Origin: Candidatus Bathyarchaeum tardum
GTDB taxonomy: Archaea; Thermoproteota; Bathyarchaeia; Bathyarchaeales; Bathyarchaeaceae
Reading direction: 5' to 3'
Assembly (NCBI GenBank): GCA_024650005.2
Contig: CP122380.1
Coordinates: 480,001 to 544,000, forward strand
DNA length: 64,000 nucleotides
Shown here: positions 21,654 through 56,877 of the stretch, piece by piece
Position numbering within the stretch: the stretch's first letter is position 1
Layout of the letters: every line of letters starts with the position of its first letter
Program-made: the position numbers and the translations under genes
The notes under the pieces: generated by a model
Databases searched by the model: none
What the model saw: only the letters and a program-made list of their open reading frames with translations
Told to the model about the DNA's origin: nothing

Positions 21654-21689
21654 CGATTGAATACCAATATTTATTATGAAGGGAAAAAA

Positions 21690-24263
21690 ATGAAAAAACT
21701 AGATTATAATAGAAAAATTTTTGCAATCGTTTTGGCTCTGATGTTGACAATTTCAACTATAATTGTTATTTTGCCAACAGTCAGCGGACAAGAATACGAT
21801 TACAGTAAAACAGCATATGCATACATTGGTGCTACACCAAACCCCGTAGGTGTAAATCAAGAAGTATTGCTGCACGTAGGAATCACGGACTATCTAAATG
21901 TAGTAAGTGATGGATGGGAAGGTCTAACAGTTACCGTTACTGACCCTAACGGAAACGAAGAAACTCTTGGTCCATTCAGAACAGACTCTACAGGTGGAAC
22001 CGGAACAATATTCGTACCCACAATGATTGGAACATATACCCTCCAAACACATTTCCCTGCACAAACTTACACGTGGACTTCACCCCCAGTGTTTGACCCC
22101 GAATTCGTTGGTACTATACTGTATGAAGCTGATGACAGTGAAGAACTAGAACTTGTTGTAAATCAAGATCCAAAAGAATACTACACTCCTTCACCATTTC
22201 CAAATGAATACTGGAGCCGACCAATAGATGGACAAAATCGAGAATGGTACAGTATTGCTGGCAACTGGGTTGATCGTCCAGCAAACAGTTATGCACCTTA
22301 CAACGATTATGCTCCTGAAACAGCCCACATATTATGGACTGATTGGTTAGAACTTGGTGGTGTCGCCGGTGGAGCAACTGGATTTCACGCTTTCGATTGT
22401 GGTGACGCGTACGAAGGAAAATTCGTTGGCTCTGTAGTTATTGGTGGTATACTGTTCTATAACAAATATCACTCTGGATTAGCCGGAGGTCCTGAATCTC
22501 AGATAGTTGTTGCGACTAATCTACACACAGGTGAAGTATTATGGGAAAAACCATTAACTGCTCCTGATGGATCGGTTCATAGACTTGCTTTTGGTCAAAC
22601 ATTTTATTTTGACTCCTTTAACTATCACGCAGTTTTTGATTTTCTATGGGCAACAGAATCAATTTTTGATTTTGCCACATTTACCTCTAAAAATATTTGG
22701 CATGCTTTTGATCCTCTAACAGGAATCTGGCAATACTCAATGGAAAACGTCCCAGCTGGAAGTATAATGTTTGGAGCTAGTACAACTATCCGAGGGGACA
22801 ACGGTGAAATCATAATTTATAACATCAATACTGCAGCCGGTTGGTTGGCAAAATGGAACTCAACCCGCGTAATCTTCGGTGATGGCGTAGGTTTTGATAC
22901 CGGAAGTTTCAGACCATATGGTCAAACATGGGATGGGAACAGAGGCTATGAATACAATGTTACAATTCCAACTGGTTTGCCTGGAGCAATACGATTCATA
23001 ACTCAAGATAAAGCTGTTGGAAACGATGTTTCTGGATGGGGTGGTATTGGAGACGATCCTGTTAATCAATGGTGTCTTAGTTTAGAAGATGGAGATTTGG
23101 TGTGGCAAAACACATGGGTTCCCCCACAAGGTGACTTGGGCATATCGTATGGTGCTTCTAGTAGCGAAGAAGGAATTTTCACATTACAGGCAAAAGAAAC
23201 AAGGCAAGTTTGGGCATTCGATATAAATACTGGTGAAGAACTTTGGGGACCTACTGAATCGATGCCATATTTGGGTATATATGGAATGATAAGTAACATA
23301 GCAGAAGGCAAAGTTATTGTAGCAGCTCGAATGGCTGGAGTCGTGAATGCATACGATTCTAACACCGGTAATTTAATCTGGTCTTATGATGCATCCGATC
23401 CATTCAATGAAATTCTGTGGGGCAATTCTTGGCCAGTACAGCCTGTGTTCATAACTGATGGAAAAATTTACCTTGGTCACAGTGAGCACTCTCCAGTTGA
23501 TCCTAAACCGCGGGGTGCTCCATTCATATGCCTTGATCTTGATGATGGTTCAGTAATCTGGAGAGCAGATGGGTTATTCCGTCAAACAGATTGGGGTGGT
23601 AAAGCCGTAATAGGCGACAGCATAATTGCAACAATGGATTCATATGACCAACGTATCTATGCCATCGGCAAGGGTGCAAGTAAAACTACACTTACTGCTT
23701 CACCCAAAGGTGCAACAGTAGGAAGCAGCGTAATACTAGAAGGCATGATCACCGACATATCACCAGGAACTAATGACATTGAGTTAACAACAAGGTTCCC
23801 CAATGGAGTTCCAGCAGTAGCAGATGAATCCATGAGCGAATGGATGCTATACGTCTACAAACACATGGCTCGCCCCTCAAACACAAATGGAGTTACAGTA
23901 ATCTTCTGGGCAGTTACTCCTGAAGGAAATACAATGGACATTGGTCGAACCACAACAGACAGCAACGGATACTACAGCTTCTCGTTCAGACCAGAACTTG
24001 AAGGCATATACACCATATTTGCAACCTTTGAAGGAACTGCAGGATACTACGGTTCAAACACACAAACTGCTATTGTAGTAGACCCCGCACCTACACCTGC
24101 AGCACCTATTGAACCTGAAGAACCAGAAACCCCCGAAGTGCCTATTGAACCAACCCAACCAGAAGCACCGTTGATCACCACTGAAATGGCAATCGTCATA
24201 GCAGTTGCAGTTATTGCACTCATCAGCGTAGCAGTGTTCTTTGTGCTAAGAAGGCGAAAATAA
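21690..24263 (+). CDS. PQQ-like beta-propeller repeat surface protein (Bathyarchaeia paralog family), membrane anchored
   Basis: Signal peptide, PNPVGVNQ, TDSTGG, TGEVLW/TGEELW repeats, EHSP, GVPAVADE, Pro/Glu linker, C-terminal TM plus RRRK; start at MKKL after GAAGGG. Confidence 0.85.
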   Translation: MKKLDYNRKIFAIVLALMLTISTIIVILPTVSGQEYDYSKTAYAYIGATPNPVGVNQEVLLHVGITDYLNVVSDGWEGLTVTVTDPNGNEETLGPFRTDSTGGTGTIFVPTMIGTYTLQTHFPAQTYTWTSPPVFDPEFVGTILYEADDSEELELVVNQDPKEYYTPSPFPNEYWSRPIDGQNREWYSIAGNWVDRPANSYAPYNDYAPETAHILWTDWLELGGVAGGATGFHAFDCGDAYEGKFVGSVVIGGILFYNKYHSGLAGGPESQIVVATNLHTGEVLWEKPLTAPDGSVHRLAFGQTFYFDSFNYHAVFDFLWATESIFDFATFTSKNIWHAFDPLTGIWQYSMENVPAGSIMFGASTTIRGDNGEIIIYNINTAAGWLAKWNSTRVIFGDGVGFDTGSFRPYGQTWDGNRGYEYNVTIPTGLPGAIRFITQDKAVGNDVSGWGGIGDDPVNQWCLSLEDGDLVWQNTWVPPQGDLGISYGASSSEEGIFTLQAKETRQVWAFDINTGEELWGPTESMPYLGIYGMISNIAEGKVIVAARMAGVVNAYDSNTGNLIWSYDASDPFNEILWGNSWPVQPVFITDGKIYLGHSEHSPVDPKPRGAPFICLDLDDGSVIWRADGLFRQTDWGGKAVIGDSIIATMDSYDQRIYAIGKGASKTTLTASPKGATVGSSVILEGMITDISPGTNDIELTTRFPNGVPAVADESMSEWMLYVYKHMARPSNTNGVTVIFWAVTPEGNTMDIGRTTTDSNGYYSFSFRPELEGIYTIFATFEGTAGYYGSNTQTAIVVDPAPTPAAPIEPEEPETPEVPIEPTQPEAPLITTEMAIVIAVAVIALISVAVFFVLRRRK

Positions 24264-24305
24264 CCAATTTTCCCTCCCTTTTTCTTTTTTGGGAGTAAAA
24301 GTATG

Positions 24306-24431
24306 GGAGAAATGGGGCTGAAAAGGCTCAAACACAAAAAATGAAAAAATAACCAAAGTGATAGTAGCAAATTTTTTTCATTTTTTATCCTCAATAGCCT
24401 GTGCTAGAGTCTCAGTAAACCCATTTCTTTC
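24306..24431 (+). ncRNA. Conserved structured RNA element with canonical bulge-helix-bulge (copy 1)
   Basis: GAAAUGGG-GCUG-AAA-AGGCUC...GAGUCU-CAGU-AAA-CCCAUUUC; homologous to 55904-56029 with compensatory changes. Confidence 0.7.
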
Positions 24432-24480: not shown

Positions 24481-24951
24481 TTATTGGGCAAAAAAATAGT
24501 TTGTTTCTGTTATTGTGCCGTTTTCCCATGTGCCTTCCCAGTTCAATGAATAAGGAATCGAGATCATTCCAGAGGGTACAGAATATTCAACTTTAACATC
24601 AAATGTTGGGTTAGCAACTATTGGGTACGAGATTTCAACAGTCCAGCCTTCACTTTGATAGTTATAGAGTCCAGCACCTAGAAGACCTGTTTCTACAAGT
24701 CCACCAGTCCATTCAAAATTGTTTATCAAAACTGTTACATCTGGGTGGTTATCTTGGATGTATTGTATAATCTCATCCCTAATTTGTTCAGGCGAAGAAA
24801 TTTCTGAATTTAGAGAATCGTTTGTTTCATTTGGTACAATATTTTCATTTTGATTTGAGCCTGCCAAGACCCAAGCAATGCTACTGCAGCAAACTAAAAC
24901 GGCTGCAAAAACAGCAATCCACAGATATTTTTTATTTCGTTTTTGGTTCAT
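24481..24951 (-). CDS. Hypothetical membrane-anchored/secreted protein
   Basis: N-terminal TM then a globular domain (PEQIRD...GWTVEISYP...WEGTW). Confidence 0.7.
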   Translation of the reverse strand: MNQKRNKKYLWIAVFAAVLVCCSSIAWVLAGSNQNENIVPNETNDSLNSEISSPEQIRDEIIQYIQDNHPDVTVLINNFEWTGGLVETGLLGAGLYNYQSEGWTVEISYPIVANPTFDVKVEYSVPSGMISIPYSLNWEGTWENGTITETNYFFAQ

Positions 24952-53324: not shown

Positions 53325-55865
53325 ATGGAAAAACAAACAAGAAAAATTAAAATAGATTCTGTCTTGTTGCTTGCAATACTGACGATATCATCTCTTGCTG
53401 TATTTTTATCCAGTGCGATTGCCCAAGAAACACCAACAATGCAGTCTTATCCATTTATTGGAGCTGTTCCAAATCCTGTACAAGTAAATCAAATGTTACT
53501 ATTTCACGTGGGAATTTCACAACAACTTAGTTCCACAGCAATGGGTTGGACTGACTTAAGCATAACCATAGAAAGACCCGATGGTGAAACTGACATAATA
53601 ACTGACATCCGAACTGACTCGACCGGAGGAACTGGTGTAGTATATGTGCCTCCAGTTGTTGGAACTTACACTGCACAACTTCATTTTCCAGATCAAGAAA
53701 TTACATCAGACAGAACCACTCCAGGACTGCCTGTTGGAGGAATTATGCTAGGCAGTGACAGCGAAGTAATAGAATTTGTTGTTCAAGATGACCCCATTAG
53801 CTATTATCCTGGTCAACCGCTTCCAGATGAATACTGGACACGACCAGTAAACGGTCAACTTTACGAATGGTCAAATATTCTGGGAGATTGGGTAAAACCA
53901 GCTGGAAGTTACTACATGCCCCCCATTGCAAAATACCATGCTGGAAACGCAGACTTTCCTGAAACTGCCCACATCCTTTGGACGAAAGTATACACTCAAG
54001 GCGGTCTGGGCAACGCTGAACTCGGAAATGTGCAATATGAAATGGGCGATGCTTACGAATACAAATTCATTGGATCAGTAATCCTTGGTGGAGTATTATA
54101 CTATAACGCATATGAAGCTCGAGGAACAAACCCTGAACTAGAGCAACAAGTTGTTGCTGTTGACATTAAAACTGGTGAAGAACTCTGGAGAAAAACCTTG
54201 GGTAACAATGAAAGATTAGCCTATGGGCAATCTTTCCACTGGGACTCATACAACTATCACGGAATTTTCGGATACCTTTGGACTGCAACTCCAGATAACA
54301 GTGCTGGTTTTGCACCGCTAAACGTTCCTCAAACATTGAAAGCTTATGATCCACAATCAGGACGCTGGGAATACACCATAGAAAATGTGCCCCCAGGTGA
54401 GACAATTTACGGTCCAAAAGGCGAAATGTACAGATACACTGTAAACTTGAGGAATGGTTGGATGACTCTTTGGAACTCAAGTCGAACAGTTTCCGTGTCT
54501 GGAAGCTGGAGACCCCAAGGAAACACCTATGACGCAGCTAGGGGAATTGAATGGAACGTAACAATACCCACAGACTTGCCTGGATCTGTTGCAATGACAT
54601 TCTTCAATGACCGAATACACGGAAGCCAAGCTAACAGCCTCTTTGGATGGTCACAACAAGATGTAACTTCATGGGCTATTGATGTTTCACCCGGCAATGA
54701 AGGTGAATTAATATTCAAAAAAACTGTTACGATGCCTGAACCTGATATGACCCTAGTTTGGTGTGACGCAATGCTTGATGATAACCGATTCATCATATCT
54801 GCAAAAGAAAACCGAAGATATTATGCATTCGATTTAACTACAGGTGATTTGGTTTGGACTAGTGAACCAGAACAATACTTGGCTTTCTACGACAAGTGGT
54901 ATGGTCCTGCATATGGTTATGGCAAATTCTTCACTGGTCGTGTAAGCGGAATTGTAACATGTTATGATCTTGAAACTGGCAATGTTGACTGGACATACAA
55001 TGTTGCAGATAACTTGGCAGAAGTAACATGGAGTAACAACTTCCCAATCGAGTATCACTTCATTGCGGACGGAAAAATCTGTTTATCTTACGGTGAGCAT
55101 TCGCCAATTAATCCTCTTCCACGAGGTGGACCTATGGTTGTCCTAGATATTGAAACAGGAGAAAAAATCTGGGAAATCAGTTGGGTAAACAACTGGTGGG
55201 GCGGACACACTTTGATTGGTGACAGTACCATCGTAGGGTTAAACGGTTATGACAACAGAATATATAGTATCGGCAAAGGACCGTCTGAAATTACAATTGA
55301 ATCGCCTCTGATGGGTTTAGCTCTTGGTTCAAGTGTTACCTTACGCGGTAGAGTTACTGACATTTCACCCGGCACGCAAGATTATGCAATTTCCGCGCGC
55401 TTCCCCAATGGCGTTCCAGTAGTAGCTGACGAAGACATGACTGCTTGGATGGAATATGTTTACATGCAATTTGGTCGACCAGCTGACGTAAATGGTGTTC
55501 CAGTGAAAATTGAAATCGTTGACCCTAATGGTCATTACGAATGGATTGGAACTGCAACAACTGATGTTTACGGCAACTACGGTTATTCATTTAGGCCCCA
55601 AGTTGAAGGTCAATACATGATTATAGCCACTTTCGAAGGCTCCGCTTCATACTTCGGCTCAACGTCAACAACATACTTCACTGTAGATCCAGCTCCTACA
55701 CCTGCTGCACCTATTGAACCTGAAGAACCTGAAACCCCTGTAGCACCTATTGAACCAACCCAACCAGAAGCACCATTGATCACCACTGAAATTGCAATCA
55801 TCATAGCAGTTGCCGTTGTCGCAGTAATCGGCGTAGCCGCATACTGGATGCTAAAACGCAAATAA
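53325..55865 (+). CDS. PQQ-like beta-propeller repeat surface protein (second paralog)
   Basis: Same architecture and motifs as 21690..24263 (PNPV, TDSTGG, TGEELW, EHSP, GVPVVADE, Pro linker, TM, KRK). Confidence 0.85.
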   Translation: MEKQTRKIKIDSVLLLAILTISSLAVFLSSAIAQETPTMQSYPFIGAVPNPVQVNQMLLFHVGISQQLSSTAMGWTDLSITIERPDGETDIITDIRTDSTGGTGVVYVPPVVGTYTAQLHFPDQEITSDRTTPGLPVGGIMLGSDSEVIEFVVQDDPISYYPGQPLPDEYWTRPVNGQLYEWSNILGDWVKPAGSYYMPPIAKYHAGNADFPETAHILWTKVYTQGGLGNAELGNVQYEMGDAYEYKFIGSVILGGVLYYNAYEARGTNPELEQQVVAVDIKTGEELWRKTLGNNERLAYGQSFHWDSYNYHGIFGYLWTATPDNSAGFAPLNVPQTLKAYDPQSGRWEYTIENVPPGETIYGPKGEMYRYTVNLRNGWMTLWNSSRTVSVSGSWRPQGNTYDAARGIEWNVTIPTDLPGSVAMTFFNDRIHGSQANSLFGWSQQDVTSWAIDVSPGNEGELIFKKTVTMPEPDMTLVWCDAMLDDNRFIISAKENRRYYAFDLTTGDLVWTSEPEQYLAFYDKWYGPAYGYGKFFTGRVSGIVTCYDLETGNVDWTYNVADNLAEVTWSNNFPIEYHFIADGKICLSYGEHSPINPLPRGGPMVVLDIETGEKIWEISWVNNWWGGHTLIGDSTIVGLNGYDNRIYSIGKGPSEITIESPLMGLALGSSVTLRGRVTDISPGTQDYAISARFPNGVPVVADEDMTAWMEYVYMQFGRPADVNGVPVKIEIVDPNGHYEWIGTATTDVYGNYGYSFRPQVEGQYMIIATFEGSASYFGSTSTTYFTVDPAPTPAAPIEPEEPETPVAPIEPTQPEAPLITTEIAIIIAVAVVAVIGVAAYWMLKRK

Positions 55866-55903
55866 ACCAAACATCCCCTCCCTCTTTTTTGGGAAAATCC
55901 ATT

Positions 55904-56029
55904 GGAAGAAACGGGGCTGAAAAGGCTCAAGCACAAAATTGAAAAACTAACCTTAAGCGATAGTAGTAGGTTTTTTTCATTTTTCTTCCTCTATTGCCTG
56001 TGCAAGGGTCTCAGCAAGCCCGTTTTTTC
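55904..56029 (+). ncRNA. Conserved structured RNA element with canonical bulge-helix-bulge (copy 2)
   Basis: AAACGGG-GCUG-AAA-AGGCUC...GGGUCU-CAGC-AAG-CCCGUUU. Confidence 0.7.
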
Positions 56030-56112: not shown

Positions 56113-56877
56113 TTACTGCTTCTTTTTTGCGTACCATTGAACTTGAATTTGATAGTTTGCACTTCTTGTAGGTTTACAGTTTCCTTTTCCACTGAATTTA
56201 GCATAAATTTCTACTGTGTCATCCCACCAATCTAGTTGGGTTGCTTTCCATTGAATACTGAAATATCCATCTGTATCTGTTACTCCCGAAGTTAAGACAC
56301 TGTCCCCGAAAAATGATCTGTCGTGTTCCAAAATTTTTATAGTGCTGTTTTGTATTCCTTTGCCTGTTTGACTGTTAATTAGCCAACCTTCAAAAGTAAC
56401 AGTAGAACCTGATTCAACAACATTGGGCGGAGACATCATTGCAATGCCTGTTTGTTCGATTGCTTCGCATTGTTTTTCAGGTTTTTCTATACTTTCCTCA
56501 GTTTTGGTGGTTGTTAAATCTTCTATGTCAGCATCGCAACTTTTCTTTACAGCTTCAATTCCTTTTTTGCAGCCTTGTTTGCTGTTGTATCCTTCGCTTG
56601 AGCCAATAATTTCTCCATTTGCTGCAATCAAATTAAATCGGAACTTAAAGTTGGTGTCAACAATAATTTCGTATTTCGGGTTTGGAATATTTTTTGTTTC
56701 AACGGTTTTGTCTTGTATTTCAGACTGACAATTCTTTTGTATGGATTTAATTCCAGTTATAACTCCTGATTTGTTTTCGTATGCTTCACTGACAACGATA
56801 ATCTTGTTGTTAATGCCACGAAGTCTGAATCGATATTTTCCTGAAACATCTTTGTAGACTTGGTATCTCGCTTTCAA
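56113..56877 (-). CDS. Tandem DUF1508 (YegP/UPF0339) protein fused to an Ig-like domain
   Basis: Two repeats GKYRFRL..N..I..SEAY..K..GIKSI / FRFNLIAANGEIIGSSEGY..K..C.KGIEAV, then a beta-sandwich with TDTDGYF. Confidence 0.85.
   Translation of the reverse strand: MKARYQVYKDVSGKYRFRLRGINNKIIVVSEAYENKSGVITGIKSIQKNCQSEIQDKTVETKNIPNPKYEIIVDTNFKFRFNLIAANGEIIGSSEGYNSKQGCKKGIEAVKKSCDADIEDLTTTKTEESIEKPEKQCEAIEQTGIAMMSPPNVVESGSTVTFEGWLINSQTGKGIQNSTIKILEHDRSFFGDSVLTSGVTDTDGYFSIQWKATQLDWWDDTVEIYAKFSGKGNCKPTRSANYQIQVQWYAKKKQ

Follow-up and report, generated by a model that had tools for sequence, protein, structure and literature searches.

The window, a 64-kb stretch covering positions 480001-544000 of the single-contig 2.15-Mb genome of Ca. 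Bathyarchaeum tardum, carries two + strand genes for surface proteins with a PQQ_2 beta-propeller (PF13360); the protein of the first gene also has weak Ig-like matches and a C-terminal membrane anchor. Behind the stop codon of each gene lies a C-rich stretch with a T-run and then a long hairpin (Table 1), and both the sequence and the ViennaRNA folds agree with the two homologous + strand hairpins drawn behind these paralogs in the initial annotation. Read from the foot upward, the lower part of the hairpin consists of a 10-11-bp outer helix, a 4-bp central helix, two 3-nt bulges and a 6-bp inner helix; above these follow a 2-by-2 loop, a 4-bp stem and an A-rich/T-rich stem, and the top is made of a pyrimidine-rich stretch of ~14 nt, unpaired on the 3' side, and a terminal loop of 23 nt. 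On the far side of the elements, the convergent gene opposite copy 2 (56113-56877, - strand) encodes two DUF1508 repeats together with transthyretin/Ig-like matches, and the convergent ORF opposite copy 1 (24481-24951) is without a Pfam match.

Table 1. Positions, in the window, of the two surface-protein genes, the elements behind them and the parts of the predicted fold.
Feature	Position	Strand	Basis or remark
Paralog 1 gene, ~840-aa surface protein family	21657..24263	+	ORF; 868 aa; PF13360, E 4.6e-16
Hairpin of C-rich stretch, T-run and GGGAG, just 3' of the paralog 1 stop	24272..24295	+	sequence; fold
Element copy 1, long hairpin	24307..24429	+	sequence, fold; covariance model 125.7 bits
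Copy 1, outer helix	24307-24316 with 24420-24429	+	
Copy 1, central helix	GCTG 24317-24320 with CAGT 24413-24416	+	
Copy 1, bulges	AAA 24321-24323, AAA 24417-24419	+	
Copy 1, 5' core half (GCTG + AAA)	24317..24323	+	almost invariant in the element family
Copy 1, 3' core half (CAGT + AAA)	24413..24419	+	
Copy 1, inner helix	AGGCTC 24324-24329 with GAGTCT 24407-24412	+	
Copy 1, unpaired pyrimidine-rich stretch with CCT-type motif	24387..24400	+	unpaired in the fold
Copy 1, predicted EndA-released segment, 96 nt	24323..24418	+	geometry: cut after the 2nd base of each bulge
Paralog 2 gene, surface protein	53325..55865	+	846 aa
C-rich/T-run stretch 3' of the paralog 2 stop	55875..55893	+	
Element copy 2	55905..56029	+	covariance model 118.2 bits
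Copy 2, central helix	GCTG 55916-55919 with CAGC 56012-56015	+	
Copy 2, bulges	AAA 55920-55922, AAG 56016-56018	+	
Copy 2, inner helix	55923-55928 with 56006-56011	+	
Copy 2, predicted released segment, 96 nt	55922..56017	+	geometry as in copy 1

Minimum-energy folding of the + strand recovers the doubly bulged base in copies 1 and 2 (z of -3.7 and -4.0, respectively), also when the flanks are included. These folds draw the central helix of both copies with five base pairs instead of four, because the run of four As lets one A pair on either side. Between the copies the outer helix differs by a T-to-C and an A-to-G change, and the alignment confirms that the two are compensatory, as had been claimed. 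Cutting after the second base of each bulge would release a segment from either copy, and recalculation gave the same two 96-nt segments as those predicted earlier. The statement that neither tRNA nor rRNA surrounds the elements likewise held: the tRNA scan of the 64-kb window was empty, the Rfam search of the window returned no family at its gathering score, C/D box and H/ACA small RNAs included, and among the five element loci searched in Rfam at E<=1 the sole match was a chance microRNA at 24.6 bits against a cut-off of 130. A K-turn and a C/D box were discarded as candidates, inspection having revealed neither tandem G-A pairs nor a C box and Rfam having been empty.

The initial annotation had spoken of just two copies, which proved far too few: 19 full copies and 2 partial ones emerged from iterated nhmmer searches of the genome. 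R1, a covariance model derived from 46 copies, recovers the same 19 full ones. When Bathyarchaeia genomes were searched with this model, as had been proposed, at E<=1e-5 the element was found in 23 of the 25 genus genomes and in 13 of the 13 high-quality ones, with about 250 copies in the genus. When R1 was run on 141 genomes drawn from the order, it matched 18 of 18 from the genus and 15 of 31 from a second family (f9), and it matched 0 of 14 genomes from other genera of its own family and 0 of 77 from ten further families. The piece predicted to be released measures 88-99 nt in the Ca. Bathyarchaeum tardum genome and 69-116 nt across all copies. No tRNA or rRNA context was found for the core motifs elsewhere in the genome.

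Most copies stand in a fixed relation to one gene family. The Ca. Bathyarchaeum tardum genome encodes 15 beta-propeller paralogs of 831-924 aa, and in 14 of them the element follows on the same strand 34-51 nt 3' of the stop; among the loci fetched from 23 genomes, a homolog of the surface protein precedes 92 of 126 copies, at 33-63 nt except for two at 71 and 102 nt. The linkage to PQQ-like paralogs suspected from the window therefore stood both in this genome and in the genus loci. The remaining copies of the 126 comprise 13 preceded by some other ORF of 50 aa or more, 19 without one and 2 with too little upstream DNA. The f9 copies behave alike, at least 18 of 30 lying 40-71 nt behind surface-protein homologs. 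The protein itself is present in 17 of the 18 genomes of the genus and in 22 of the 31 of f9, among them 15 of the 15 element-bearing f9 genomes, and in 0 of 14 from other genera and 0 of 77 elsewhere. By inspection, the interval between stop and element in gene-linked copies always contains C-rich sequence and 6-8 consecutive Ts, and in the genus this stretch pairs with GGGAG into a hairpin, folded as a 5-bp stem with a T-rich loop, which in the case of paralog 1 is likely the oligo-T terminator of the gene. The fifteenth paralog (genome 467998-470559), which is without the element, has kept the C-rich stretch and the T-run and has neither GGGAG nor the hairpin.

The 3' ends of the two window genes are themselves alike, with a mean column identity of 81% over 330 aligned columns, and the element could be imagined as a functionless leftover from a segmental duplication of the gene tail. 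We find this hardly credible, since the surface proteins are 36-60% identical to one another and yet the core of the element is nearly invariant, with stems that covary across two families; moreover, the homology between copies 1 and 2 in the alignment ends at the foot of the hairpin.

A second alternative places the function in DNA, where the hairpin or a cruciform would serve recombination or mobility, as MITEs, REP elements and integron attC sites do, and would move or convert the gene-plus-element cassette. In favour of such a role, each gene is followed by an inverted repeat that is imperfect and has offset bulges, relatives contain tandem arrays of gene plus element, tandem elements occur, and element and gene share a patchy occurrence in one genus and one other family. 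Nevertheless, in both families the element keeps its distance and strand relative to the homologous genes upstream, which points to co-inheritance rather than insertion, the Y1 (IS200/RAYT) transposase PF01797 has 0 matches in this 97.9%-complete genome, and attC core sites are not apparent by inspection at the element ends. Compensatory changes within one genome would also be unexpected for terminal repeats bound by a transposase. We regard a DNA-level function as unlikely. The more specific REP/RAYT assignment was rejected: besides the absence of a Y1 transposase, the two ORFs flanked by the inverted copies at genome 794293 and 797256 encode a GNAT acetyltransferase and SfsA.

Several arrangements seen along the way concern the genomic setting of the copies. 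Relatives contain four or five gene-plus-element units in series on one strand with a spacing of ~3 kb (G013:C11:31754-58803 and G003:C2:3473-15005), and tandem element pairs occur at further loci (L138, L042, L101, L126 and L127). Upstream of one stand-alone copy (L007, genome 794230-794411) the sequence resembles the last codons, the stop and the C-rich/T-run tail of a lost paralog, and some solo copies are therefore relics of gene loss. A tRNA-Pro(TGG) gene (genome 1293545-1293622) is located on the opposite strand ~80 nt past the element at 1293340-1293466.

Selection on the structure was evaluated in three alignments fitted to R1, namely A3 (94 distinct copies), A4 (51 divergent copies of the genus) and A5 (30 copies of family f9). 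Paired cells made up 84.5% in A3, compared with 76.5% after shuffling and 46-51% with the pairing partner slid; the corresponding values were 81.8, 65.4 and 38-50% in A4, and 78.3, 65.9 and 32-50% in A5. Cells changed on both sides numbered 369 in A3, 341 in A4 and 172 in A5, against 151, 126 and 72 after shuffling. Although the observed values were reached by 0 of 500 shuffles, the alignments lean towards the structure of the model and the shuffle test is inflated by related copies, so that the slid-partner controls are the fairer comparison. The outer helix is 79-83% paired in A3 and A4, with 9-10 of its 10 pairs covarying, and the inner helix is 90-92% paired in the same alignments. Whole helices have been swapped, as where GG:CC of the inner helix gives way to AA:TT, and the outer helices of G009 are quite different. 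Judged from these alignments, the copies form a real family on which selection is strong. It is conservation and covariation across ~175 distinct copies that go beyond chance, and not the single fold.

Loss of the 4-bp helix and the 3-nt bulges in further copies had been named in the initial annotation as grounds for abandoning the motif, and the motif survived. Each bulge measures 3 nt in 93 of 94 distinct copies of the model-fitted A3, with the same seen by eye in divergent and f9 copies, and reads AAA in 74 of 94 on the 5' side and in 82 of 94 on the 3' side. The three inner pairs of the central helix (CTG/CAG) never or almost never vary in A3, A4 and A5; the helix as a whole is GCTG/CAGC in 65 of 94 copies and is retained in that form in 29-30 of 30 copies of f9. 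In f9 there is covariation between the fourth base 3' of GCTG and the base that precedes CAGC (AU in 19 copies, GC in 6 and GU in 5), which argues for a 4-bp helix with a 3-nt bulge and against the 5-bp register. On the gene-sense strand both bulges sit 3' to the central helix, each within its own strand; this polarity is that of the tRNA-Arg(TCT) intron of the same genome, whose bulges are TAA and AAA, and matches the hBHBh' motif as described in passages of PMC4090602.

The resemblance to a substrate of the tRNA splicing endonuclease EndA, as first proposed, is upheld by the bulges, the polarity and the flanking helices, but the central helix gives a mixed picture at its first pair. This pair is G:C in 68 of 94 copies and mismatched in 19 of 94 in A3 and in 22 of 51 in A4; in some species it fails in between one and two fifths of the copies, and where it is mismatched a 1-by-4 loop replaces the clean 3-nt bulge. 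In a strict test that called for four of four central pairs and two pairs on each side, 60 of 94 copies passed. Having the right polarity on the gene strand is a one-in-two feature. Furthermore, a scan of the genome gave 607 bulge-helix-bulge places as against 620 of the mirror geometry with at least 15 pairs, and 30 as against 29 with at least 20 pairs; in this AT-rich genome the geometry is no rarer than its mirror, and the shape of a single copy was therefore not counted as evidence.

EndA recognises shape rather than sequence, and with a core as nearly invariant as this one, one has to assume either another reader or some post-cleavage function of the core bases. One alternative is a sense-strand RNA module that EndA leaves uncut and whose bulged core is bound by a sequence-specific factor, the element backing up termination, blocking 3'-to-5' decay or tagging the messengers of this exported protein family. 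A near-invariant core sequence amid helices that all covary would fit sequence-specific reading, and the frequently unpaired first central pair, the position directly behind the T-run of the gene and, in the Ca. Bathyarchaeum tardum genome, the T-runs on both strands of the upper stem would all be in keeping with such a module. However, a terminator or stabiliser needs no pair of 3-nt bulges at 4-bp spacing, and yet these have been kept over two families; the internal T-runs are only 3-5 bases long in divergent copies, stand-alone copies led by a promoter-like motif are ill-suited to a terminator, and no candidate binding protein was found. Overall, we consider an uncut, factor-bound module somewhat unlikely. 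The fallback offered in the initial annotation, a terminator or MITE relic, is a poor fit to an element whose bulged core is its most constrained part and of which 92 of 126 copies keep a set distance behind homologs.

The earlier claim that the structure works only on the + strand stood in part. Bulge polarity agrees with it, as do the base pairs themselves: on the gene strand there are 315 G-U pairs against 168 A-C, and in one helix 107 against 6. The - strand, on the other hand, folds well too (z of -4.6 and -2.8), with a geometry that is the mirror image. Good folding on that strand, together with a GGTGA- or GAGGA-like stretch 5-10 nt before an ATG AAA in most copies of the genus, is what an opposite-strand product would have in its favour, be it an antisense RNA or a micro-protein started at this Shine-Dalgarno-like-preceded ATG. 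We nonetheless judge it very unlikely, given the excess of G-U over A-C pairs and the locking of orientation to the upstream gene; the ORF ranges from 8 to >26 residues with neither frame nor stop conserved, and by inspection the ATG is missing in many f9 copies. The - strand micro-ORF was accordingly dropped as a candidate on its variable length. The same pair counts bear less on a function in DNA, as single-stranded DNA likewise tolerates G-T pairs.

With respect to transcription, the orientation of the element follows that of the upstream gene, and 669 runs of T6-T8 occur on the sense strand of ORFs of at least 300 aa, so that read-through past T-runs is possible. Given the T-run before the element (24279-24290 for copy 1) and the T7 and T6 runs inside it in the Ca. 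Bathyarchaeum tardum genome (24372-24386 in copy 1; only 3-5 T in divergent copies), full-length transcripts may be rare. One sequencing run, which is only guessed to be of RNA, gave a single 153-nt contig at 23299-23451, inside paralog 1, with nothing from the element, and counts neither way. A promoter of the element's own within the T-run was rejected: with the usual archaeal TATA-to-start distance, transcription would start in the 5' arm of the outer helix, in conflict with the covariation of that helix.

Ahead of six stand-alone copies, at a distance of 62-131 nt, stands a palindromic motif with the same orientation as the element, GTCAA-NN-TTTCTTGAC-AAAA. Two of these copies belong to the Ca. 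Bathyarchaeum tardum genome (1887516 and 1970376), and there ORFs begin 61-63 nt after the copies, which places the element in the position of a 5' leader. Of the 26 strict matches to the motif, 22 have a same-strand ORF of 80 aa or more within the next 20-150 nt, compared with 40% of random places and with 3 of 26 on the other strand; on this sequence pattern the motif behaves like a promoter or operator. The genome holds ~100 loose matches to GTCAA-NN-TTTCTTGAC, often as a tandem pair of which the second runs into AAAA-CCC-TTTT; examples are those at genome 1336693 and 1336737 (behind the 16S gene), 323096/323130 and 1922034/1922069, and the matches at 1887385 and 1970537, which lie before stand-alone elements. 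The motif looks like the operator and promoter of a large regulon. Altogether, the G-U excess, the gene-locked orientation, the promoter-like motifs and the T-run counts favour a sense-strand RNA.

As to the enzymes that processing would involve, the genome encodes one RtcB and two ORFs with the EndA domain PF01974, ~200 aa each. The pair of PF01974 ORFs suggests a two-subunit EndA, a type that tolerates relaxed motifs according to the abstract of PMC5829648. The 16S gene (genome 1336854-1338347, - strand) was analysed with 220 nt on each side; its flanks pair into a long processing stem, in which no canonical motif was found but two small bulges 5' of a 4-bp helix, with a polarity opposite to that of the tRNA intron. 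With a 16S stem that is non-canonical, the EndA substrates in this genome may be narrow. In line with this, some Bathyarchaeia are described, in passages of PMC12918454, as being without a bulge-helix-bulge at 16S and as not circularising their 16S rRNA.

Our preferred reading, which we hold tentatively and at a little under an even chance, is that the element is a sense-strand RNA module processed by EndA. RNA polymerase would read through the T-run behind the surface-protein gene, and the read-through transcript would carry a hairpin of 125-135 nt with a bulge-helix-bulge at its base. The EndA subunits of the splicing endonuclease would cut both bulges, after which RtcB would join the ends into a ring of ~96 nt (88-99 nt in this genome) that retains the inner hairpin and an exposed pyrimidine-rich loop, and a short hairpin would close off the messenger tail that is left. 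The sequences themselves establish the family, its covarying structure, its strand and position relative to genes and the encoded enzymes, whereas passage of the polymerase across the T-runs, cleavage, ligation and any role of the ring are inferred. Since its junction coordinates are exact, the prediction lends itself readily to testing.

A further proposal concerns what the ring might do. A CCT-type motif is present in the unpaired 3' internal loop in 85 of 94, 39 of 51 and 29 of 30 copies (A3, A4 and A5, respectively), and in several copies the loop reads TCACCTTC, close to the 3' end of the 16S, TCACCTCC. Messenger tails, and some leaders, could then be factories of stable ~96-nt rings whose CCT loop, resembling the 16S 3' end, binds Shine-Dalgarno regions and so couples or limits translation among the 15 paralogs. 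We think this improbable; if true, it would be a trans-acting circular regulatory RNA derived from archaeal 3' untranslated regions.

Splicing-endonuclease introns in messengers have precedents in the cbf5 intron of Crenarchaeota and the HVO_1309 5' UTR intron of Haloferax volcanii; for the latter the excised piece was sequenced as a ring and the site was cut in vitro (passages of PMC7714728). EndA substrates other than tRNA and rRNA are very few according to the same passages, amounting to one coding-region and one 5' UTR intron. Like these, the present element has a bulge-helix-bulge outside tRNA and rRNA and is tied to protein genes, with two stand-alone copies in 5' leaders. Unlike the single-locus cbf5 and HVO_1309 introns, it is multi-copy (19 per genome, ~250 in the genus) and its processing is here a prediction; it also lies mostly behind the stop and T-run of one paralogous gene family and has a near-invariant core. 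It shares the two 3-nt bulges, the polarity and the flanking helices, and in the copies whose first central pair forms also the 4-bp helix, with canonical tRNA introns and rRNA processing stems, as far as these are described in passages of PMC4090602, but differs from them in having no tRNA or rRNA nearby, far longer outer and inner helices and a conserved core sequence.

Comparison with repeats acting at the DNA level gives a similarly mixed picture. As with bacterial REP/BIME and archaeal MITEs, the element is a dispersed imperfect palindrome between genes, often at their 3' ends; unlike them, its place and strand are fixed to one gene family, its stems covary and no Y1 transposase accompanies it. 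Like an integron attC site, it forms an imperfect, bulged hairpin of comparable length where a gene ends, and relatives have some tandem arrays, whereas its genes are mostly dispersed and no attC core sites were seen at its ends by inspection. Among the papers listed by full-text literature searches there was none on such a multi-copy gene-tail element, and in the species paper (PMC10477458) no passage deals with PQQ, propeller, repeats or introns.

If the EndA reading is true, the element would be a new, multi-copy EndA-motif module inherited with a surface-protein family across two families of Bathyarchaeia, and EndA would shape messenger ends or make circular RNAs genome-wide. Even without EndA, the element would represent an RNA family not described before, with strong covariation and an invariant bulged core, from an abundant class of archaea that has been little studied.
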